From NCBI RefSeq assembly GCF_001262505.1, contig NZ_KQ410724.1:320848-384847 (forward strand): 64,000 nt of DNA. Direction: 5' to 3'. Position 1 is the stretch's first letter. Each line of letters starts with the position of its first letter. Position numbers and translations under genes: made by a program. Positions 10,369-38,261 of this stretch are shown here, piece by piece. This DNA comes from Shinella sp. SUS2 (lineage in GTDB: Bacteria > Pseudomonadota > Alphaproteobacteria > Rhizobiales > Rhizobiaceae). The notes beneath the pieces are model-generated. The model did not search any database and was not told the origin of the DNA. It saw only the letters and a program-made list of their open reading frames with translations.

Positions 10369-10928
10369 GGCGGCCGATTCGCCGCGAGGTTGTCCACAGG
10401 CGAATTCATATTTCGGGCATTTGACTTGGAAATCCGCAGGTTGCACGGTTCGTGCCGGTTGCTGACCGTACGTGAACCGTGTCGCCCCCGGAATCCGGTC
10501 ACGTGGTGAAAATTGGCTATAAGTCGTACTATTCGACTTTGGTGAAGCCTATCAATGGGTTGTATCGTGTATCGCCTTCCCGTACGTCAACCGGGTATTT
10601 TGCCATGGTTGCACATTTCTCTTGCTATGGTTGAAATTGATGTTGCCAACCATTGTTGCGATCCATGACGGAACCGCTGCTCAATGGCACACGTCTCCTC
10701 GGCGCGGTTAACTATGAGACAAGGCTCCGGCGGGGGAGCGTTAAGAATTCGTTGATTTTTTTTCTTTTTCGCGCGATGCTCAACTCATGCGCGGCAAACG
10801 AGGCCGCACAACCGGTTACCCCATGATGCTAGGTCCGCCGCATCTCCTGGGTCGTGGGGTCGGTCGGTCAGCTACGACAAATACGGAATCCTCGTGCCGT
10901 CGTCGTGTCTGACCGACCCCCATTCAAC

Positions 10929-16069: not shown

Positions 16070-18724
16070 TCAGGCCTTCTTTGCCTTGGTTGCGGTCTTG
16101 GCCTTGGGCGCTGCCTTCGGCTTTGCGGCCTTGGCATCGTCCGACTTCGCCGCCTTGGTGGTCTTCGTCGCCTTGGCCTTGCCCTTGGCGGGCGTCTTGC
16201 CGGCCTTGTCGGCGATCAATACGAGGGCCTCTTCCAGCGTCACGCTGTCAGCGGCCTTGCCCTTGGGCAGTGTGGCGTTGACCTTGCCCCAGTTCACGTA
16301 GGGGCCGTACTTGCCGTCCCGCACCGTGATGGGGCCGCCGTCCGGATGGTCGCCGAGCGTCTTCAGGGCCGCAGGCGTGCCGCGCGAGCGGCCGCCGGGG
16401 CCCTTCGACTGCTTGTCGGCAATGACCGAAACGGCGCGGTTGAGGCCGATCGAGAACACGTCCTCGACACTTTCAAGGTTCGCATAGCCGCCGTCATGCA
16501 GCAGGAACGGGCCGTAGCGACCGATGCCGGCGGAGATCATCTTGCCGGTTTCCGGATGCTGGCCGATATCGCGCGGCAGCGAGAGCAGGGCGAGCGCCTT
16601 CTCGTGGTCGATGCTCGCCGGCGTCCAGCCCTTGGGCAGGCTGGCGCGCTTGGCTTCCTTGCCGTCACCGCGCTGCACATACGGCCCGAAGCGGCCGTTA
16701 CGCAGCGTGATCTCTTCGCCCGTATGCGGATCCTTGCCGAGGCTCTGCGGCTCGTTGGAGGCAGCGGCCTCCGCATCCGAACCGTTGTCGGCGGAAAGCT
16801 GACGGGTGAAGTTGCATTCCGGATAGTTCGAGCAGCCGACGAAGGCGCCGAACTTGCCGAGCTTCAGCGAGAGCTTGCCGGTGCCACAGACCTGGCAGAT
16901 CCGCGGATCGCTGCCGTCCTCGCGCTTGGGGAAGACGAGCGGGGCGAGCTCCTCGTTGAGGGCATCGAGCACGTTGGTGACGCGCAGTTCCTTCGTGTCC
17001 TCGATCTGCGCGAAGAAGTCCTTCCAGAAATCGCGGAGAACCTGCTTCCAGTCGAGTTCGCCGGCCGAGATCTTGTCGAGCTTTTCTTCAAGGCCCGCGG
17101 TGAAGTCGTATTCGACATAGCGGGTGAAGAAGCTCTCGAGGAAGGCCGTGACGAGGCGGCCCTTGGCCTCCGGGATCAGCTTGCGCTTGTCGATGATGAT
17201 GTATTCGCGGTCGCGCAGCGTCGCAAGCGTTGCGGCATAGGTCGACGGACGACCGATGCCGAGCTCTTCCATCTTCTTGATGAGCGAGGCTTCCGAGTAG
17301 CGCGGCGGCGGCTCGGTGAAGTGCTGGCTGGCATTCACCTTCTGCTTGGCGACCGTCTCGTTGGCGTTGATCTCCGGCAGGCGGCCGTCGTCGTCACCGT
17401 CGTCCGACTGTTCGCCATCTTCCTTCTGGTCGGTATAGGCGGCGATGAAGCCGTCGAAGCGGATGACCGAGCCGGTGGCGCGCAGGCCTGCCTTGCGCCC
17501 GCCATTGTCCGCCTCGATCTCGACCGTCGTGCGCTCGATCTCGGCCGAGGCCATCTGGCTGGCGATGCCGCGCTTCCAGACGAGATCGTAGAGTTTCAGC
17601 TGGTCCGGATCGAGATAGCGCTTCACCTGGTCGGGTGTGCGGTCGAAGGAGGTTGGGCGGATCGCCTCGTGGGCCTCCTGGGCGTTCTTCGCCTTGGTGG
17701 AGTAGATGCGGGCCTTTTCCGGTACATAGCGTGCGCCGAACTGCTCGCCAACGGCCTTGCGGGCGGCGTCGATCGCCTCCGGCGCCATCTGCACGCCGTC
17801 GGTACGCATATAGGTGATGAGACCGACCGTCTCGCCGCCGATGTCGATGCCCTCATAGAGCTTCTGCGCCACCTGCATGGTGCGGGAGGCGGAGAAGCCG
17901 AGCTTGGAGGAGGCGGCCTGCTGCAGGGTGGAGGTGGTGAAGGGTGGCGAGGGATTGCGCTTGGTGGGCTTGGCCTCGACGCTTTCGACGCGGTAGGCCG
18001 CACCGTCGAGCAGCGCCTTGAGGCGGTTCGCCTCCTCGCCGTTGCCGATCGCCTTTGGTTGGAGACGCTTTCCTTCGGCCGAAACGAGGCGCGCCTCGAA
18101 CTCGTCGCCGCGCGGCGTCTTCAGGAGGGCGGAGAGGTTCCAGTATTCCTCCGAGACGAAACGCTCGATTTCGGATTCCCGGTCGCAGACGAGGCGCAGC
18201 GCCACCGACTGAACGCGGCCGGCCGAGCGGGCGCCCGGCAGCTTGCGCCAGAGAACCGGCGAGAGGTTGAAGCCGACGAGATAATCGAGGGCACGGCGGG
18301 CGAGGTAGGCATCGACCAGCGCGATGTCGATGTCGCGCGGGTTGCGCATGGCATCGAGCACGGCCGACTTGGTGATGGCGTTGAAGACGACGCGCTTGAC
18401 CGGTTTGTCGCCGATGACACGCTTCTTCTTCAGGACGTCGAGTACGTGCCAGGAGATGGCTTCGCCTTCGCGATCCGGGTCGGTCGCGAGAATGAGGCCG
18501 TCGGAGGATTTCACCGCGTCTGCAATGTCCTTCATACGCTTGGCCGAGGCGCTGTCCACTTCCCAGGACATCTCGAAGTCCTCGTCCGGGCGCACGGAGC
18601 CGTCCTTGGCGGGCAGATCGCGCACGTGGCCAAAGGAGGCGAGCACCGTGTAGCCGGGGCCGAGATACTTGTTGATCGTCTTGGCCTTGGCAGGCGATTC
18701 CACAACTACAACATTCATCGTCAT
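16070..18724 (-). CDS. topA: DNA topoisomerase I with a lysine/alanine-rich C-terminal tail
   Basis: TOPRIM N-terminus MTMNVVVVESPAKAKTINKYLG, C-terminal zinc ribbons, and a KAKATKTTKAAK tail. Confidence 0.95.
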   Translation of the reverse strand: MTMNVVVVESPAKAKTINKYLGPGYTVLASFGHVRDLPAKDGSVRPDEDFEMSWEVDSASAKRMKDIADAVKSSDGLILATDPDREGEAISWHVLDVLKKKRVIGDKPVKRVVFNAITKSAVLDAMRNPRDIDIALVDAYLARRALDYLVGFNLSPVLWRKLPGARSAGRVQSVALRLVCDRESEIERFVSEEYWNLSALLKTPRGDEFEARLVSAEGKRLQPKAIGNGEEANRLKALLDGAAYRVESVEAKPTKRNPSPPFTTSTLQQAASSKLGFSASRTMQVAQKLYEGIDIGGETVGLITYMRTDGVQMAPEAIDAARKAVGEQFGARYVPEKARIYSTKAKNAQEAHEAIRPTSFDRTPDQVKRYLDPDQLKLYDLVWKRGIASQMASAEIERTTVEIEADNGGRKAGLRATGSVIRFDGFIAAYTDQKEDGEQSDDGDDDGRLPEINANETVAKQKVNASQHFTEPPPRYSEASLIKKMEELGIGRPSTYAATLATLRDREYIIIDKRKLIPEAKGRLVTAFLESFFTRYVEYDFTAGLEEKLDKISAGELDWKQVLRDFWKDFFAQIEDTKELRVTNVLDALNEELAPLVFPKREDGSDPRICQVCGTGKLSLKLGKFGAFVGCSNYPECNFTRQLSADNGSDAEAAASNEPQSLGKDPHTGEEITLRNGRFGPYVQRGDGKEAKRASLPKGWTPASIDHEKALALLSLPRDIGQHPETGKMISAGIGRYGPFLLHDGGYANLESVEDVFSIGLNRAVSVIADKQSKGPGGRSRGTPAALKTLGDHPDGGPITVRDGKYGPYVNWGKVNATLPKGKAADSVTLEEALVLIADKAGKTPAKGKAKATKTTKAAKSDDAKAAKPKAAPKAKTATKAKKA

Positions 18725-28329: not shown

Positions 28330-28617
28330 ATGTCCGTAGATCTAGCCACCGTGAAGCGCGTCGCGCGTCTTGCCCGCATCGCCGTCAGCGAGGAAGAGGC
28401 AGACCGCATGACCGGCGAGCTGAACGGCATCCTCGGCTTTGTCGAGCAGCTGTCCGAAGTCAATGTCGACGGCGTCGAGCCGATGACCTCCGTCACGCCG
28501 ATGGAGATGAAGAAGCGCGAGGATGTCGTCAATGACGGCAACAAGGCGGATGCCATCGTTGCCAATGCGCCGGCCACCGACCGTAATTTCTTCCAGGTTC
28601 CGAAGGTGGTGGAGTAA
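28330..28617 (+). CDS. gatC: Asp-tRNA(Asn)/Glu-tRNA(Gln) amidotransferase subunit C
   Basis: 95 aa product with [29 protein letters not shown]. Confidence 0.92.
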
Positions 28618-28620
28618 TCC

Positions 28621-29085
28621 TTGGCCGTCACCCTCGCCATCGAGAGCCCGCTTAGCGATGAGGTTCGCGCGCTGGTCGCCGAGCTGAACACCGTGCTGCT
28701 CGCGCTCTCGCCGCCGGAGGCCTGCTACCACCTGACCGTCGAGCAGATGGCCGAGCCGGCCGTGACGGTCTGGATCGCCCGTGACGAGGGAACCGTCGTC
28801 GGCTGCGGTGCGCTGAAGCGCCATTCCGCGGCGGTGGGCGAGGTGAAGCGCATGTTCACCCGGCCGGACTGGCAGGGGCAGGGCATCGGCCGGCGCATCC
28901 TTGGCGAGATCCAGGCTGCCGCCGAACGGGAGAAGCTGGAAACGCTCGTGCTCGAAACAGGCGACCAGCACCCGGCTGCCTGGGCGATCTACGAGAAGGC
29001 CGGGTTCACCCGCTGCGGCCCCGTGCTCGACTATCCGGATTCACCCTATTCCATATTCTATCAAAAGCAGCTTCGTGCTGCCTGA
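28621..29085 (+). CDS. GNAT family N-acetyltransferase inserted between gatC and gatA
   Basis: TTG start 4 nt after the gatC stop. Acetyl-CoA binding motif (VKRMFTRPDWQGQGIGRRIL). Ends 7-19 nt before gatA. Confidence 0.7.
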   Translation: MAVTLAIESPLSDEVRALVAELNTVLLALSPPEACYHLTVEQMAEPAVTVWIARDEGTVVGCGALKRHSAAVGEVKRMFTRPDWQGQGIGRRILGEIQAAAEREKLETLVLETGDQHPAAWAIYEKAGFTRCGPVLDYPDSPYSIFYQKQLRAA

Positions 29086-29091
29086 CCCGAA

Positions 29092-30585
29092 GTGACCGCA
29101 CCCATGACCGATCTGACCCGCCTGACCATTGCCGAAGCCCGCGAAAAGCTCGGCGCCAAGGAGATCACCGCCGTTGAGCTGACGGACGCCTATCTTGGCG
29201 CGATCGAGGCGGCGAACCCTGTCATCAACGCCTATGTCGCCGTGACGCCGGAAAAGGCGCGCGATATGGCGAAGGCCTCTGATGGCCGCATCGCTGCCGG
29301 CAAGGCAGGTGCGCTTGAGGGCATCCCGCTCGGCATCAAGGACCTGTTTGCGACCGAGGGTGTGCATACCCAGGCCTGCAGCCACATCCTCGACGGCTTC
29401 AGGCCGGAATACGAATCGACGGTCACCGGGAACCTGTGGGCCGATGGCGCCGTCATGCTCGGCAAGCTGAACATGGACGAGTTCGCGATGGGCTCCTCCA
29501 ACGAGAGTTCCTATTACGGCGTGGTCAAGAACCCGTGGCGCGCGAACGGATCCAACGCCGATCTCGTCCCGGGCGGTTCGTCCGGTGGTTCGGCCGCGGC
29601 CGTTGCCGCGTTCCTGTGCGCCGGTGCGACGGCGACGGACACCGGCGGCTCGATCCGCCAGCCCGCCGCCTTCACCGGCACCGTCGGCATCAAGCCGACC
29701 TATGGCCGCTGCTCGCGCTGGGGCATCGTCGCCTTCGCCTCCTCGCTCGACCAGGCCGGCCCGATCGCCCGCGACGTGCGCGATGCGGCGATCCTCTTGA
29801 AGTCCATGGCAAGCGTCGATGCCAAGGATACCACCTCCGTCGATCTGCCGGTGCCGGACTACGAAGCCGCGCTCGGCCAGTCGCTGAAGGGCATGCGTAT
29901 CGGCATACCGCGCGAATACCGCGTCGAGGGCATGCCGGAGGAGATCGAGGCGCTCTGGCAGCAGGGCATCGCCTGGCTGAAGGAGGCCGGTGCCGAGATC
30001 GTCGACATTTCCCTGCCGCACACCAAGTACGCGCTGCCGGCCTATTACATCGTCGCGCCCGCCGAAGCCTCGTCGAACCTCGCCCGCTATGACGGCGTGC
30101 GCTACGGCCTGCGCGTCGACGGCAAGGACATCGTCGACATGTACGAGAAGACGCGCGCTGCCGGTTTCGGCCAGGAGGTCAAGCGCCGCATCATGATCGG
30201 CACCTACGTGCTGTCGGCCGGGTATTACGACGCCTACTACCTCCAGGCGCAGAAGGTTCGCACGCTGATCAAGCGCGACTTCGAGCTCGCCTTCAACGCC
30301 GGTGTCGACGCGATCCTGACCCCGGCGACGCCGTCCTCCGCCTTCGGCATCGCCGACGAGGACCTCGCATCCGACCCGGTCAAGATGTACCTGCAGGACA
30401 TTTTTACCGTCACGGTGAACATGGCCGGCCTGCCGGGCCTTTCCGTGCCCGCCGGTCTCGACCACAAGGGCCTGCCCCTCAGCCTCCAGCTCATTGGCAA
30501 GCCCTTCGAGGAGGAGGTCCTCTTCAAGACGGCGCATGTCATCGAAAAGGCCGCCGGCCGCTTCACGCCGGCCAGGTGGTGGTAA
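29092..30585 (+). CDS. gatA: Glutamyl-tRNA(Gln) amidotransferase subunit A
   Basis: Amidase signature ([13 protein letters not shown]). The start may be the ATG at 29104 (MTDLTRL). Confidence 0.93.
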
Positions 30586-30840: not shown

Positions 30841-30914
30841 GCGGACCTAGCTCAGCGGTAGAGCACCGGATGTTCCTCCGGAGGTCGCGGGTTCGATTCC
30901 CGTTGTCTGCTCCA
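30841..30914 (+). tRNA. tRNA-like gene with an anomalous 6-nt anticodon loop (TGTTCC), G3:U70 and a C7.U66 mismatch; identity ambiguous, possibly a pseudo-tRNA
   Basis: Clear D arm (GCTCAGCGGTAGAGC). T arm identical to the genuine tRNA-Gly at 58967. 3' CCA present. The anticodon stem CCGGA/TCCGG leaves only 6 loop nucleotides. Confidence 0.5.
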
Positions 30915-30984
30915 TTGGATAGCTCAGTGGTAGAGCATCAGATTGTTACTCTGACTGTGGAAGGTTCGAATCCTTCTCCAAAGC
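30913..30984 (+). tRNA. tRNA-Asn(GTT)-like element lacking an encoded CCA, with an A2.A71 mismatch; it overlaps the upstream tRNA-like gene by 2 nt
   Basis: D arm GCTCAGTGGTAGAGC. Anticodon stem TCAGA/TCTGA with loop TTGTTAC. T arm GAAGG-TTCGAAT-CCTTC. Acceptor CATTGGA/TCCAAAG. Confidence 0.45.
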
Positions 30985-31427
30985 GCTGACTCAAAATCAG
31001 CGACAGCCTTCCAAGCTGTCTTACCTCCGGTCCGGGGACCGGACTGCGGACGGTAGACCGCAAGTGGGCCGAAAGGCGCGTTTGTGGAAAACCCGACGCC
31101 GGACATTCGCGGTCCGGTTCGCGGTGACGGTCAAGCCGCCTTCCGGCCGGCAAGGGTGCCGCGGCATCCAAGCCCGCTTGAAGGCCGCGCGGCCCTCTCC
31201 CGAAAACCCGCCGCCGATGGCCGTCAGCCGGTTCCCGGATCATGCCTGTTGAAACATACCCCGCCCGCAGGTTCCCCGGGCGAAAAGGGGCTCACCGGGA
31301 ACTGGCAAGGGAAACGGAACCGGAACCGTGTTTGTGGTCCGCACCATCCCGCCGCCGATGCCAACAGAAACCAACGACGAAAGGACGATCGGTTCATGAC
31401 GTAGCGTATGACCGAAGGAGCAGAACG

Positions 31428-32573
31428 ATGACGATATTTCTCGATACGATCCTGGGGCGCACACGCGTCCTCGTGAAGGCAAACGAACGGGTGCTCGCCC
31501 TCTACAGGGGAGAAGTCCTCGGCATATTCGGCGCCGGTGAACACAGCCTGCCGAACCGCCGTGGCATGCTGGAGCTGGAACGTCACGACGTGAACCGGCC
31601 GACCTTCGTCTCGGCCTACGAGAAGCCGTTGTTCGATGGGCTCCCGGCGGTCGCGCAGCGCGAGCTGACGGTCTTTCGCACGAATGCCCGCGAGGTGGCT
31701 GTCGTCGAACGTGACGGTGAGCTTCACGCCGTTCTTGCACCGAACCAGAAGCTTGTGGTCTGGAACGCGGCAGGTCCGTGGACGGAGACGCGTGTCGACC
31801 TGGCCGGCGGGCTCGATGTCGATCCGGAGCTGATGCGCCGGTTGACGCGGGCGCGTCGCCTGGAACTCGTCACGGCCTTCCTGGTCAATGACGGGCAGGT
31901 CGGCCTGCTTGTCATCGACGGGACGCACCAGCGCATGCTGGAGCCGGGCGTCCACGCCTTCTGGAATGTCGGCCGGACGATCCAGGTGCGCGTGGTCGAT
32001 CTCAAGCGCCAGTCGCTCGACGTCACCGGTCAGGAGCTGCTCACCCGCGACAAGGTCACGATCCGGGTGAACATCGCTGCCGAATACCGCGTCGTCGAAC
32101 CGCTGAAGGCCGTCTCGGAGGTCAAGGATTTTGCGGATGCCCTCTACCGGGCGCTGCAGTTCGCCTTCCGCCAGACGCTTGGCACGCTGACGCTCGACCA
32201 GATCCTCGAACGCAAGGTGACGGTCCATGCGGAAGCGGCCGAGAAGGTCCGCACCGACATGGCCGCGATCGGGGTCGAGGTCTCGGCCATCGAGCTCAAG
32301 GACGTGATCCTGCCGGGCGAGATGCGCGACATCCTCAACCAGGTTGTCGCCGCTGAAAAGCAGGCCGAGGCCAATGTCATTCGCCGCCGCGAGGAGACGA
32401 ACGCCACCCGTTCGCTCCTCAACACGGCGAAGGTGATGGCGGAGAACCCGGTCATGCTGCGGCTGAAGGAGCTGGAAGCGCTGGAGGCCATCGCCGGCAA
32501 GGTCGAGCGCCTGACGATCCACAACGGAACGGCGGGCCTGATGAACGACCTCGTCCAGCTTCGCGACAAGTAG
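31428..32573 (+). CDS. SPFH/band-7 (slipin-like) domain protein with an N-terminal ~70 aa extension and a long coiled-coil C-terminus
   Basis: AAGGAG SD before the ATG at 31428. Band-7 core (TRDKVTIRVNIAAEYRVV...LDQILERK) plus an Ala/Glu-rich helical tail. The first 62 codons of the track ORF are a likely artefact. Confidence 0.8.
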   Translation: MTIFLDTILGRTRVLVKANERVLALYRGEVLGIFGAGEHSLPNRRGMLELERHDVNRPTFVSAYEKPLFDGLPAVAQRELTVFRTNAREVAVVERDGELHAVLAPNQKLVVWNAAGPWTETRVDLAGGLDVDPELMRRLTRARRLELVTAFLVNDGQVGLLVIDGTHQRMLEPGVHAFWNVGRTIQVRVVDLKRQSLDVTGQELLTRDKVTIRVNIAAEYRVVEPLKAVSEVKDFADALYRALQFAFRQTLGTLTLDQILERKVTVHAEAAEKVRTDMAAIGVEVSAIELKDVILPGEMRDILNQVVAAEKQAEANVIRRREETNATRSLLNTAKVMAENPVMLRLKELEALEAIAGKVERLTIHNGTAGLMNDLVQLRDK

Positions 32574-32716: not shown

Positions 32717-33229
32717 ATGATCGCCGTTCGCAATGCCCGTGAGGACGATGTTCCCGCTCTCGTCGAAATCGGCGTTCGGGCCTGGGAACAGGCCGTCGTC
32801 GGCGTCGCCGACCTGCAGGTGCGGCGCGACTATGCCCGCAACGCCTTCCAGCAGTTCCTTGCCCGCCACTGGTTGCGGGTGAGCGTCGCTGAAACCGAGG
32901 GCCGGACGGCCGGATGGGCGGCGCGCGAGGCGCTGGACGACGAGATCAGCGACCTCTGGATCGACCCGCCACAGCAGAAGAAGGGGCTCGGCTCCGCCTT
33001 GCTCTCCGCCATGGAGGCGGAGATCGTCGCAGCGGGTTTCGAGGCGGCGCGGTTGCAGACGCATGCCCGCAACACGGCCGCCGTCGGCTTCTTCCAGAAG
33101 CACGGCTATAGCGTGAACTGGCTGTCTATCGACTATTCCGAACGCCTCGACCGCGATGTCGAGTCGGTCGGCCTGCGCCGGCAGCTCGTTGCGGACGAGC
33201 CGCCCGGCTACGGGCCGGGCGGGTTCTGA
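32717..33229 (+). CDS. GNAT family N-acetyltransferase
   Basis: 170 aa from MIAVRNAREDDVPAL. Motif QQKKGLGSALLSAME. Confidence 0.7.
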   Translation: MIAVRNAREDDVPALVEIGVRAWEQAVVGVADLQVRRDYARNAFQQFLARHWLRVSVAETEGRTAGWAAREALDDEISDLWIDPPQQKKGLGSALLSAMEAEIVAAGFEAARLQTHARNTAAVGFFQKHGYSVNWLSIDYSERLDRDVESVGLRRQLVADEPPGYGPGGF

Positions 33230-33263
33230 GGGGAGGCGGGCTTTCGCCGCGCCTCCCGCCGGT

Positions 33264-33521
33264 TCACTGGTTGTCCAGCTGGGCCCGCACCAGCTCCAGG
33301 CCGCGTTGCGTGATGCGGTAGGGCCTGCCGCCGGAGGAGGCGATGCACCGCCGGCGCTTCAGTTTCCGGAAGAGGTCGATGTCGAGGCCGCTCGCTCGCC
33401 AGCCGTCCCGCGTGATGCAGGCGACCGTCATGACCTTCCGGTTGTCGTCTTTTTCGATGTCGATCCTGCCGCCCTGGGCGAGCAGATGGAGAATGCGCTG
33501 TTCGGCGCGCGAAATGTCCAT
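33264..33521 (-). CDS. UPF0386 / YjhX (TopAI) family protein, a putative topoisomerase I-inhibitor toxin homolog
   Basis: 85 aa, MDISRAEQRILHLLAQGGRI...KLKRRRCIASSGGRPYRITQRGLELVRAQLDNQ. It is collinear with, and the same length as, E. coli YjhX as recalled. Confidence 0.75.
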   Translation of the reverse strand: MDISRAEQRILHLLAQGGRIDIEKDDNRKVMTVACITRDGWRASGLDIDLFRKLKRRRCIASSGGRPYRITQRGLELVRAQLDNQ

Positions 33522-33714
33522 TGTCTTGAGAATCCGTCCGGCGTTCGAATGAACGCGAAAAAACGTTCCGCCACCTACGAGGTGGCAGGGCTCATCGTTT
33601 TTCCAGACCCTGCGCGCAAGCTGTCGCGGGCAGGGTCTTCAGCAGGTCTCAGACGAGTTAGACATCAAAACTCCATTTGCGGATGCCCCGGAATAGCCGG
33701 GGCATCCGCAAAGG

Positions 33715-34617
33715 TCAATGCATCGGCCAGATCAGGGAATGGTGCAGGAAGACGGCAGTCTTCACGCCGTTGGCCGAGGCGAGCGAGATGTTGGCCGCCC
33801 CGAGCGCGATGTCGCCGGCTGCATAGAGGCCGGGCAGGGAGGTCTGGCCCGTGTCGTCTGTGTGGAGGATGCTGCCGATCGGCGTTTCCTTCAGCGTCAG
33901 GCCGCGCCCGGCCGGGATGGTGCTGCGCACCCGCGCCTCCGGCATCACGAAGAGCGCCTTCACGAGGGTCGGGATGCCCGGCCCGGTTTCGACGGACAAG
34001 AGGCCATCCGGCCCGTCGGCGATGGCGGTGACGCGGCCCGGCCGGAGCTTCACATTGCGCTCGGCGAGCACGGCAAGGGCCGCGTCGTCCGGCTCCGGCG
34101 CCATGTTGGTAAAGAGCGTGACATTGCCCCAGTCGGCGACCACCGCCGCAAAGCGCGCCGCCTCGGCCGTGCGCGCCAGCACGCCGACCGGTCCACCGCC
34201 CACCTCGTAGCCATGGCAATAGGGGCAATGCAGCACCGTCTTGCCCCAGCGCTCGGCAAGGCCCGGGATATCGGGCAACTGGTCCTCGAAGCCGGTGGCA
34301 AGCAGCACGCGGCGCGCCGCAATCCGCCCGTCGTCGCCGGTGACGACGGAGAAGGCGTCCTTCTCCCCGTCCAGCCGTTCGGCCGGCACGTCACGGAAGG
34401 TGACCGTCGCGTAGGCGGCCAGCTGTCGGCGGGCATCGGCAAGGATGTCGCGGCCCGGCCGGCCGTCCTGGGCGAGGAAGCCGTGCGAATGGGCGGCGAA
34501 GCGGTTGCGCGGCTCGCCGGTGTCGAGAATGGTGATGCGGCGCCGGGCGCGGGCAAGCTGCAGGGCGGCGGAAAGGCCGGCAAAGCCCCCGCCGATGATG
34601 ATGGCATCTTCGGTCAT
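33715..34617 (-). CDS. FAD-dependent pyridine nucleotide-disulfide oxidoreductase (thioredoxin reductase-like)
   Basis: IIGGGFAGLSAA dinucleotide fold, a redox-active CPYCHGYE pair, and a C-terminal GDIALGAAN motif. Confidence 0.75.
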   Translation of the reverse strand: MTEDAIIIGGGFAGLSAALQLARARRRITILDTGEPRNRFAAHSHGFLAQDGRPGRDILADARRQLAAYATVTFRDVPAERLDGEKDAFSVVTGDDGRIAARRVLLATGFEDQLPDIPGLAERWGKTVLHCPYCHGYEVGGGPVGVLARTAEAARFAAVVADWGNVTLFTNMAPEPDDAALAVLAERNVKLRPGRVTAIADGPDGLLSVETGPGIPTLVKALFVMPEARVRSTIPAGRGLTLKETPIGSILHTDDTGQTSLPGLYAAGDIALGAANISLASANGVKTAVFLHHSLIWPMH

Positions 34618-34703
34618 GGTTCATCCTTTCTGTGGAGCGCGCGGCATCGTTCGCCCGATGGGTATCGGTCGTTCGATGCGGAGTATCGGGAAGGCGTTCC
34701 CGT

Positions 34704-35147
34704 TTAGCCGGTATCGGTCCGACGGCGTTTCGCCGCCACCCGGTAATCGGCGGCGAGGTCGGCAAGCGTCGTGCCGGCGAAGCGCGCCATCAGGATCGCC
34801 TCGGCGTCCTTCAGCGCGTCACCGATCACCCGGTTGACGGATTGCTCGATCACGCAGCCCGGCATTTCCGTCGCCGGGCCGATCTGGAAGACGATCGGCT
34901 CGCCGAGCGCGTTGTAGATGTCGAGCAGCGAGATGTCCGCAAGCGGCCGGGCAAATTGCCAGCCGCCGCCATGGCCGCGGCCGGATTGCACGATACCGGC
35001 GTCGCGAAGGCCTGCCATGGTGCGCCGGACGACGACGGCATTGGTGTCGAGGCAGAGTGCAAGGTCGTCCGAGGTCATCGGCGCCTCGCGTTCGGCCATG
35101 TGCATGAGTGCGTGGAGCACGGCGGAAAGACGGCTGTTTCTTTTCAT
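34704..35147 (-). CDS. Rrf2 family transcriptional regulator
   Basis: wHTH (RLSAVLHALMHMA...SDDLALCLDTNAVVVRRTMAGLRDAGIV). The start at MKRNSRL (35147) lies upstream of the TrxR-like gene. Confidence 0.8.
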   Translation of the reverse strand: MKRNSRLSAVLHALMHMAEREAPMTSDDLALCLDTNAVVVRRTMAGLRDAGIVQSGRGHGGGWQFARPLADISLLDIYNALGEPIVFQIGPATEMPGCVIEQSVNRVIGDALKDAEAILMARFAGTTLADLAADYRVAAKRRRTDTG

Positions 35148-35202
35148 GTAACAATAATAGTTACGAATCTTGCTTTCTGTCAACATGCCGGCGATGCAGG
35201 TG

Positions 35203-35508
35203 TCAGCCGGCGCGCAGTGTGCGGACGAGGGCAGGGCCGAAAATCAGCGCCGCCGGCACGAGCGCCGCGTGCAGAATCAGGATCGCCATCAGCTGCGTGC
35301 GAAAGGGCTCCTTGCGCGTCTTGTGCCGCAGCAGCTGTTGCGCGGCGACGGCGCCGAGGCTGCCGCCGAAGAGGGCGAACTGCAGCAGCCGCGCTTCGGA
35401 AACGCGCCAATGGCCGTCACGCGCGGCCTCCTTGTCCCACCAGTAGAGGCAGAACGTCACGACGTTGAGGAGAAGGAAGATGATGAGAAGCGTTGTCGTC
35501 GTACCCAT
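35203..35508 (-). CDS. DUF1294 family membrane protein
   Basis: Motifs [15 protein letters not shown] and RHKTRKEPF, with two TM helices. Confidence 0.7.
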
Positions 35509-37709: not shown

Positions 37710-37862
37710 TCCGCGGCGAAAAGCCGTGGGCGAAGGGGCGGGAATCGCTGGACATTCCAGCGCTGCCGCGCCATAAGCGGAAGAAAGATCGCCCGCTTTC
37801 TGCGGGCGGCCCAACAGTCTCGGGCCGCGCTTCCGGCACGGCCCTGCCAAGGACGCCAGCCC

Positions 37863-38261
37863 ATGAACCTTCTCAAGCAGATTTTTACCTGGTGGAACGG
37901 TCAGACGATCGGCACCCGTTTTCACACCTGGCGCTTCGGCACCCGGGTCGGCCAGGACGAACTCGGCAATGTCTACTACCAGGGCGGCGCGAAGGATTCC
38001 GAAGGGCGCACGCGCCGCTGGGTGATCTACAACGGTTATGCCGAAGCCTCCGCCATCCCGCCGGGCTGGCACGGCTGGATGCACCATCGCACCGATGTTT
38101 CCCCGGCCGATGAAAAGTATCAGGCCCGCGACTGGGAAAAGCCGCACCGCCAGAACCCGACCGGCACCGCCCAGGCCTATCGTCCGCCGGGCTCGCTTGC
38201 CGCCGCCGGCGAACGTCCGCGCGTGACGGGCGACTACGACGCCTGGACGCCGGGCAACTGA
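37863..38261 (+). CDS. NDUFA12-like (NADH:ubiquinone oxidoreductase 17.2 kDa subunit family) protein
   Basis: Motifs FTWWNGQTIGTRF, GNVYYQG, RRWVIYNG and IPPGWHGWMHH. Confidence 0.8.
   Translation: MNLLKQIFTWWNGQTIGTRFHTWRFGTRVGQDELGNVYYQGGAKDSEGRTRRWVIYNGYAEASAIPPGWHGWMHHRTDVSPADEKYQARDWEKPHRQNPTGTAQAYRPPGSLAAAGERPRVTGDYDAWTPGN

Follow-up and report, generated by a model that had tools for sequence, protein, structure and literature searches.

A solitary yjhX/topAI homologue in Shinella is preceded by a conserved leader with a toiL-like upstream open reading frame

The 64,000-nucleotide (nt) stretch of the Shinella sp. SUS2 genome analyzed here (hereafter "the window"; assembly GCF_001262505.1, contig NZ_KQ410724.1, positions 320,848 to 384,847) encodes at 33264-33521(-) an 85-residue protein with an ATG start and a predicted winged-helix fold, homologous to YjhX (TopAI) of Escherichia coli. 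To our knowledge, no endogenous protein other than TopAI is known to inhibit bacterial topoisomerase I specifically, and we know of no work on TopAI beyond E. coli, where it has been studied only as one half of a toxin-antitoxin pair. The surroundings of yjhX are as described by the initial annotation, made from the sequence letters alone. Across a 34-nt spacer (33230-33263), a gene for a GNAT acetyltransferase (32717-33229(+); Acetyltransf_1, 50.5 bits) converges on yjhX, and a 193-nt gap (33522-33714) holding a very stable hairpin separates yjhX from a co-oriented upstream pair, i.e., a TrxR-like flavoprotein gene (33715-34617(-)) and an Rrf2 regulator gene (34704-35186(-)). No co-oriented antitoxin gene lies beside yjhX: the downstream gene is on the opposite strand and the upstream genes are the TrxR-like and Rrf2 genes. 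The gene for the candidate target, topA (16070-18724(-)), is 14.5 kb away; over its N-terminal 650 residues, the encoded protein has 37% identity to E. coli TopA. The closeness of the two genes is real, but yjhX occupies unrelated contexts in other lineages, and no evidence gives it any meaning. What the initial annotation did not see is that the 193-nt gap is a conserved leader with an upstream open reading frame (uORF) resembling E. coli toiL, a candidate answer to the question it had raised of how yjhX is regulated.

The proposed full-length homology, collinear with the E. coli protein, was borne out by profile searches and pairwise alignment. Pfam family PF09857 (YjhX_toxin) covers the reading frame end to end (1-85/85, 131.3 bits, E = 1.2e-38), well above its gathering cutoff of 27 bits, NCBIfam NF010240 matches at 135.1 bits (cutoff 99 bits), and E. 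coli K-12 TopAI aligns at 44% identity over 84 residues with zero gaps (E = 5e-20). In a 28-sequence alignment, the window protein keeps S4, E7, Q8, R9, L11, H12, G17, G18, C35, R38, and G40, as well as F51, P67, Y68, R79, and N84. It is a true member of the YjhX/TopAI family, a compact family for which 1.84 billion representatives yielded 208 clusters at 50% identity. The second cysteine of most family members (in a "DC" motif near position 46) is missing from the Rhizobiales/Hyphomonadaceae clade; YjhX of Shinella and its Rhizobiaceae relatives has a cysteine at position 60 instead, C35 being the other conserved cysteine of the family. The ratio of non-synonymous to synonymous substitution rates of the window gene is 0.07-0.25 against 14 orthologues, and yjhX is thus under purifying selection. 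Its nearest database relatives are Shinella proteins already named "YjhX family toxin" by NCBI: the gene was known as a named family member, and what is new is its occurrence without an antitoxin and behind a distinct toiL-like leader.

E. coli TopAI (YjhX)-YjhQ(-YjhP) is a toxin-antitoxin operon (Yamaguchi & Inouye 2015, PMC4666372). The Shinella protein has the length and the invariant residues of its toxin, and a TopA target is likewise encoded in the window; however, there is neither a co-oriented downstream GNAT gene nor a YjhP methyltransferase gene, and while the E. coli operon sits in a horizontally acquired island, the window yjhX is a syntenic core-genome gene beside gatB. Mapping the window genes by tblastn onto 80 related genomes showed yjhX and gatB to be divergently oriented without exception in Shinella, Mycoplana, some Rhizobium, Mesorhizobium, and Aminobacter, and the same holds for Sinorhizobium meliloti. 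An adjacent GNAT gene was found in none of seven other lineages (including Sphingomonas, Parvibaculum, a Bdellovibrionales metagenome-assembled genome, an enterobacterium, Caulobacterales, and two others). Among 80 metagenomic yjhX loci, 65 of them assessable, an iterated GNAT profile with trimmed reading frames (converged at 55 hits) detected a co-oriented downstream GNAT gene in only four, all confirmed by Pfam. A yjhX homologue occurred in only 25 of 72,556 plasmid records and in 4 "phage" records, several of these being chromosomes. Overall, the window yjhX is best supported as a solitary, vertically inherited, single-copy chromosomal gene. Its description as an "orphan" therefore stands as to its solitary state and fails as to its being an anomaly, since most sampled members are solitary; among these, the orphan state is the normal one for the family.

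On plasmid pAtK224b of A. tumefaciens, a member of the Rhizobiaceae like Shinella, yjhX and a co-oriented GNAT gene behind it form a pair (locus L171, 2501-3237) with a gap of 11 nt, the same spacing as in E. coli, and that GNAT matches YjhQ at E = 2e-5 over 116 residues. The plasmid YjhX is 49% identical to that of the window, and an eight-codon uORF (MFTIAGNR*) lies ~117 nt upstream; the plasmid pair is located beside parB and a DUF932 gene, whereas yjhX of the window is on the chromosome and lacks a partner of this kind. Two of the four GNAT-bearing metagenomic loci encode HD-GNAT fusions (L156:1691-2779 and L159:3252-4340), in which the yjhX stop codon overlaps the start of the fusion gene and no ToiL-like uORF was seen at either locus. 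At two enterobacterial loci, one on a plasmid, a gene for a YjhP-like S-adenosylmethionine-dependent methyltransferase directly follows yjhX without a GNAT gene (L085:3269-3979 and L173:2769-3515), and so the operon also exists in a toxin-methyltransferase form. Plasmid counts for the family are inflated: the 3.72-Mb S. meliloti "plasmid pSymB" in PLSDB (CP090106.1, locus L170) is evidently a chromosome with gatB, gatA, gatC, and ruvX, and several other multi-megabase "plasmid" matches are chromosomes as well.

The initial annotation had proposed the convergent GNAT as a possible YjhQ-like partner, and here the answer is mostly negative and an ordinary one: its gene appears as a neighbor, not a partner. 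A convergent type II toxin-antitoxin pair, with the GNAT neutralizing YjhX as YjhQ does in E. coli, would be in keeping with the GNAT fold of YjhQ, with the mere 34 nt between the genes, and with two rearranged loci (L054 and L076) in which a GNAT homologue (47-51% identity) still stands beside yjhX, though upstream. However, the window GNAT shares only the generic acetyl-CoA motif with YjhQ (55 residues, E = 0.12), and only motif A aligns with the YjhQ-like GNAT of pAtK224b (55 residues, E = 2e-4). Co-transcription of the two genes is ruled out by their convergent orientation. They are neighbors only in the Shinella/Mycoplana/related Rhizobium clade, in which the whole gatA-gatB interval is syntenic, and GNAT genes are frequent across the gatC-gatA-gatB region. 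Both yjhX and its leader are kept without this GNAT in Mesorhizobium, S. meliloti, and Hyphomonadaceae: a CBS-domain gene takes its place downstream of yjhX in Mesorhizobium and Aminobacter, the immediate neighbors of yjhX in S. meliloti are gatB on one side and gatA on the other, and those in Hyphomonadaceae are unrelated. We thus regard such a pair as very improbable. The earlier interpretation accordingly holds for the homologue and its antitoxin-less state, and not for a YjhQ-like GNAT.

A search of the 64-kb window for YjhQ and YjhP homologues returned weak hits alone. The best YjhQ match is a second GNAT gene (28621-29085(+)) between gatC (28330-28617) and gatA (29092-30585), and it is weak (E = 0.026; 27.5% identity over 120 residues). 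In S. meliloti and at several other loci, a GNAT gene is likewise found after gatB. The spacer between yjhX and the convergent GNAT gene is largely occupied by a GC-rich hairpin (33231-33257, both strands), a probable two-way transcript end without a U-tract (-28.7 kcal/mol, z = -2.8 on the plus strand; -24.9 kcal/mol, z = -3.1 on the minus strand).

Upstream of yjhX, the leader follows a constant order: TTGAC, ~17 nt, CTAT-type hexamers, GGAG, the uORF, hairpin H2, an A-run/H3/U-run element, hairpin H4, ~20 nt, and the yjhX ATG. In the window, a putative promoter (33690-33718(-)) would consist of a -35 element TTGACC (33718-33713), a spacer of 16-17 nt, and a -10 element CTATTC/TATTCC (33696-33690). 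Of 77 alphaproteobacterial leaders, 48 have TTGAC 49-55 nt 5' of the uORF start codon, loci with a divergent gatB upstream among them. The Shine-Dalgarno sequence GGAG (33671-33674(-)) precedes by 5 nt the eight-codon uORF (33639-33665(-); ATG TCT AAC TCG TCT GAG ACC TGC TGA, MSNSSETC*), with its start 144 nt before that of yjhX. The window and 76 of 80 related loci carry a uORF, preceded by a Shine-Dalgarno sequence, 122-167 nt upstream of yjhX; among the misses, three have no upstream sequence and in the fourth (L076) the frame is 9 codons long. In 77/77 leaders, a GGAG (or GAGG/GGTG) motif is found no more than 12 nt from the uORF start, and uORF length is nearly fixed (8 codons in 74/77, 9 in two, 7 in one). 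The encoded peptides vary, with 36 distinct peptides from 45 nucleotide versions and the consensus M[SF][NST]x[SA][EQ][ST]R. Variation includes synonymous changes (TCT/TCC/TCG/TCA at Ser5, CGC/CGG/CGT/CGA at Arg8) and the use of all three stop codons. The C-terminal residue is Arg in most alphaproteobacterial uORFs and Cys in that of the window.

Since the layout is retained where a divergent gatB precedes it (L017, L024-L028, Mesorhizobium, and S. meliloti), the leader belongs to yjhX and not to the upstream operon. The very stable hairpin recorded initially (33673-33714(-); -35.1 kcal/mol, z = -7.8) overlies the promoter spacer and -10 element; at loci where no co-directional gene precedes the leader (L017, L024-L029), this hairpin has decayed or is missing. 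Because it is kept only with such a gene, it is best read as the probable terminator of the Rrf2/TrxR-like operon. These patterns bear on a deflationary view, in which the upstream elements are incidental, H3 simply terminating the upstream operon and the short frame having arisen by chance. A terminator-like site does lie between the co-directional genes here, and chance short frames are common, yet the leader persists behind a divergent gatB, the upstream operon already has a hairpin of its own at 33714-33673, and uORF and Shine-Dalgarno sequence accompany 77/77 leaders at fixed length, with related uORFs in 68/83 distant loci compared to 0/353 random windows. This view, which we would give next to no weight, is already contradicted by the comparative data. 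As further observations on this segment, the TGA stop codon of the TrxR-like gene overlaps the -35 TTGACC, and the hairpin over the leader promoter could couple the two transcription units. An EcfG/extracytoplasmic-function-type promoter (GGAAC...CGTT) overlapping H3 was considered and rejected, its spacing being wrong and its sequence accounted for by the H3 stem and U-run.

Three hairpins follow the uORF, and all three covary. H2 (33605-33638(-); AGACCCTGCCCGCG ... GCGCGCAGGGTCT) begins its 5' arm 1 nt past the uORF stop codon, so that a ribosome at the uORF end would cover that arm; 93.6% of its cells are paired in the Shinella-group alignment, and across lineages both partners vary in 13 of the 14 pairs (88-90% of cells paired). 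The extended hairpin H3 (33557-33604(-)) comprises an A-run GGAAAAACG, a stem CCTGCCACC/GGTGGCGG (33588-33568), and then AACGTTTTTTC, in a form resembling an intrinsic terminator. A terminator scan picked it up at a distance of 36 nt from the yjhX start codon, as the stem 33588-33568 with AACGUUUUUU behind it; the U-run lies at 33563-33558, and the folding energy is -21.1 kcal/mol (z = -3.6). Across lineages, 18/18 H3 pairs covary, including the A-run:U-run extension (86-87% of cells paired). A hairpin with a U-rich tract is present in 66/77 alphaproteobacterial leaders compared to 30/244 random windows (12%), in 26% of other lineages, and not in the E. coli leader. The small hairpin H4 (33541-33556(-); GCGTTC attc GAACGC) is paired in 99% of cells in the Shinella group, and 6/6 of its pairs covary across lineages (94% paired).

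Over the 30 Shinella-group leaders as a whole, 89.9% of cells pair compared to 33-47% when the partners are slid, and 12 pairs change on both sides, a number matched by 1 of 500 shuffles. Across lineages, 83.7% of cells pair (30-43% slid) and 48/60 pairs change on both sides, with 0/500 shuffles equal, in an alignment fitted to the covariance model, which inflates these pair counts. A covariance model of the Shinella group recovered the full-length leader in 34/34 Mesorhizobium, Aminobacter, and Hyphomonadaceae loci (E from 4e-17 to 1e-3) and matched the S. meliloti leader (L170:2840-3015) at 96 bits. It gave no match in other lineages or in the E. coli leader, and RNA-level homology with the toiL leader could therefore not be shown. 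One further weak, full-length match within the window (37738-37877(-), 18.9 bits, E = 0.06), inside a long open reading frame downstream of gatB, was judged a probable chance hit. Rfam returned nothing at gathering score in 33200-33800, with STnc490, sX6, and RAGATH-16 far below.

The three hairpins are predicted to be enclosed by a closing helix, P1, between the uORF (33666-33640) and the yjhX translation-initiation region (33513-33540(-)), where no canonical Shine-Dalgarno sequence was found 5-10 nt before the ATG. The predicted pairings are GAUGUCUA:UGGACAUU, GUCUGAGA:UCUCAAGAC, and CUGCUG:CGGACGG. When the leaders of nine lineages, E. coli among them, are folded to minimum free energy, the uORF pairs over its whole length, start codon to stop codon, with the yjhX start region (-25 to +9), enclosing H2, H3, and H4; the mean duplex energy is -18.6 kcal/mol, with z = -1.8 relative to shuffled uORFs. 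Helix-1 of P1 (uORF start:yjhX start) is 88-94% paired and shows wobble changes only, and other parts are 60-95% paired; true covariation is scarce in P1 as a whole. Cognate and non-cognate uORF:start-region duplexes differ by just 1-3 kcal/mol, i.e., there is no strong co-evolution signal.

The design of this leader recalls that of E. coli toiL, an eight-codon regulatory uORF that senses ribosome-targeting antibiotics and pairs with the topAI ribosome-binding site, ribosome stalling inducing expression (Baniulyte & Wade, eLife 2025, PMC12121999). Read from the K-12 sequence, toiL (ATG CTG GAG AAT GTA ATC ATC CGA TAA, MLENVIIR*) starts 139 nt upstream of topAI, and it shares with the window uORF the eight codons, the Shine-Dalgarno sequence, the distance to the gene (144 nt in the window), and a hairpin that begins at the uORF stop codon. 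In the window leader, the uORF is predicted to pair with the yjhX initiation region. However, the peptides MLENVIIR and MSNSSETC share only length and position, the latter being Ser/Thr-rich and ToiL not; the E. coli leader does not have the covarying intrinsic-terminator-like helix of the window leader, and the toiL mechanism includes Rho-dependent termination inside topAI. The leader is best supported as toiL-type in a lineage-specific form, with another type of peptide and an added intrinsic-terminator-like helix.

Conservation of ToiL has been reported only for bacteria that have topAI-yjhQP or a TopAI protein matching that of E. coli at 50% identity or more (PMC12121999). Here, ToiL-like uORFs were also found outside Rhizobiales and Hyphomonadaceae, e.g., MLELAVIR* in the Bdellovibrionales genome, MLENVVNR*, MKELAIR*, MLEIAVIR*, and the MxEIVAR* forms MSEIVAR* and MKEIVAR*, and in Sphingomonas too; the dominant metagenomic type before yjhX is MxEI[VA]xR*. 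No continuous series of peptides connecting these to the alphaproteobacterial type emerged. The excess of the ToiL-like motif over random windows in the 83 other loci, given above, refers to a motif that was defined after inspection of the data. Searches of the literature on the YjhX family (UPF0386, PF09857, DUF2084) and on the uORF peptides yielded nothing beyond the two E. coli papers, and the family-wide association of yjhX with a ToiL-like uORF appears to be unreported in the literature searched.

Taken together, we consider it reasonably probable that the window yjhX encodes a solitary, vertically inherited TopA inhibitor that is held off by its ~190-nt leader, in place of an antitoxin, and switched on by ribosome stalling. 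In such a scheme, the uORF would be well translated and the default state of yjhX would be off, either because most transcripts stop at H3, or because the uORF strand occludes the yjhX start codon, or both. A ribosome stalled on the uORF under translation stress or ribosome-targeting antibiotics would keep the uORF strand single-stranded, and the freed yjhX start could then be translated. By analogy with E. coli TopAI, YjhX would bind topoisomerase I on DNA, at the N-terminal part of the enzyme, and slow both transcription and replication. Given the many Ser, Thr, and Ala codons of the uORF, chloramphenicol would be expected to act as an inducer, as it does not for E. coli toiL. A short leader frame whose ribosome occupancy is proposed to remodel the downstream RNA is a feature shared with ermCL, msrDL, the whiB7 uORF, and trp-type attenuators. 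Unlike these, the window leader has no conserved alternative antiterminator pairing, and it precedes a homologue of a topoisomerase inhibitor where they control a resistance or biosynthesis gene.

Several points weigh against this scheme, beyond the fitted alignment and the motif definition mentioned above. P1 is the less secure part of the structure, resting mainly on thermodynamic prediction (z of about -1.8), and, since coding sequence makes up both of its strands, wobble changes are the only ones seen in the part that is best conserved. Judged from their sequences, the alphaproteobacterial uORF peptides (M[SF][NS]xSE[ST]R) show no clear similarity to ToiL, resembling it only in length, position, and the usual C-terminal Arg. 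A neutralizing partner may be encoded outside the 64-kb window. Finally, H3 persists in every fold in which a ribosome was masked on the uORF, and a conserved antiterminator competing with H3 was not found; relief of any termination at H3 thus lacks an explanation.

This last point also bears on a variant in which the leader acts mainly by transcription attenuation, H3 being an efficient terminator, the stalled ribosome blocking H2, and the freed H2 3' arm pairing with the H3 5' arm as an antiterminator. The uORF stop codon does abut H2, GCAGGGU of the Shinella H2 can pair with GCCCUGC of H3, and the hairpin with U-tract is enriched in the alphaproteobacterial leaders. The H2-H3 complementarity is, however, weak in Mesorhizobium and absent in Hyphomonadaceae, and this candidate antiterminator, present in Shinella only, was therefore rejected as a conserved element. 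Moreover, H3 is retained in the constrained folds of every lineage, the Hyphomonadaceae tract after H3 (UCUGUUUC) is U-poor, and the H3 U-run pairs with a covarying A-run. Attenuation as the principal mode of action seems unlikely to us.

A different challenge concerns the protein, as alphaproteobacterial YjhX might be a non-toxic, small housekeeping winged-helix protein, DNA-binding or nucleoid-associated, to which the name "toxin" has come from overexpression in E. coli. Topoisomerase I inhibition and growth arrest on induction are known for the E. coli protein alone (PMC4666372). A housekeeping role would sit well with the core-genome synteny, the purifying selection, the absence of an antitoxin from most lineages, and the rarity of yjhX on plasmids and phages. 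It would also be compatible with the predicted structure, a high-confidence winged-helix model whose nearest relatives are MarR/PadR DNA-binding domains. These relatives share only 12-23% sequence identity with the window YjhX, which is a single 85-residue domain without the MarR dimerization helices; a sequence search of the PDB gave no relative, a lipocalin at E = 0.13 being judged noise. On the other side, E. coli TopAI has been reported to act on TopA without binding DNA or RNA directly (PMC4666372), and the invariant residues of the family are retained in the window protein. An elaborate repressive leader, common to the E. coli toxin locus, also suggests a need for low expression. Compared to the leader-controlled TopA inhibitor favored above, we see a housekeeping protein as a minor prospect.

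The remaining features of the interval are variable. The Rrf2/TrxR-like pair (33715-35186(-)) differs in its occurrence among Shinella genomes, being absent in L010, L017, and L024-L028, and looks like an insertion. Two adjacent tRNA genes (30841-30911 and 30913-30984, plus strand) lie between gatA and an SPFH/Band-7 gene (31422-32573), and the latter is present in some Shinella genomes and not in others, i.e., the gatA-gatB interval is itself variable. A DUF1294 gene is found near yjhX both in Shinella (35203-35508(-)) and in Enterobacteriaceae bacterium 89 (L085:5227-5562), which may be coincidence. Elsewhere in the window, the rhizobial small RNA EcpR1 (Atu_C6) is matched by Rfam at 10816-10923(+) (81.8 bits, gathering score 60).

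The comparative data indicate that a lone gene without an antitoxin is the usual state of yjhX, that the Rhizobiales copy belongs to the core genome beside gatB, and that a tiny toiL-like upstream frame accompanies yjhX nearly everywhere. From this, we tentatively raise the possibility, to which we would not quite commit, that control by a toiL-type sensory uORF, rather than by an antitoxin, is ancestral and nearly universal in the YjhX/TopAI family, with YjhX serving as a translation-stress brake on topoisomerase I in Proteobacteria and Bdellovibrionota, and with the E. coli toxin-antitoxin operon as a minority variant found largely on mobile elements. Within this picture, the leader RNA of Rhizobiales and Hyphomonadaceae is distinct: it covaries strongly, has its own peptide type (M[SF]NxSE[ST]R*) and an intrinsic-terminator-like helix, is not in Rfam, and is present in S. 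meliloti. If the leader acts as proposed, ribosome stalling would be tied directly to the control of DNA supercoiling in many bacteria, the tolerance of a potentially lethal protein without an antidote would be accounted for, and an uncatalogued structured leader RNA, present in the model rhizobium S. meliloti among others, would be added.

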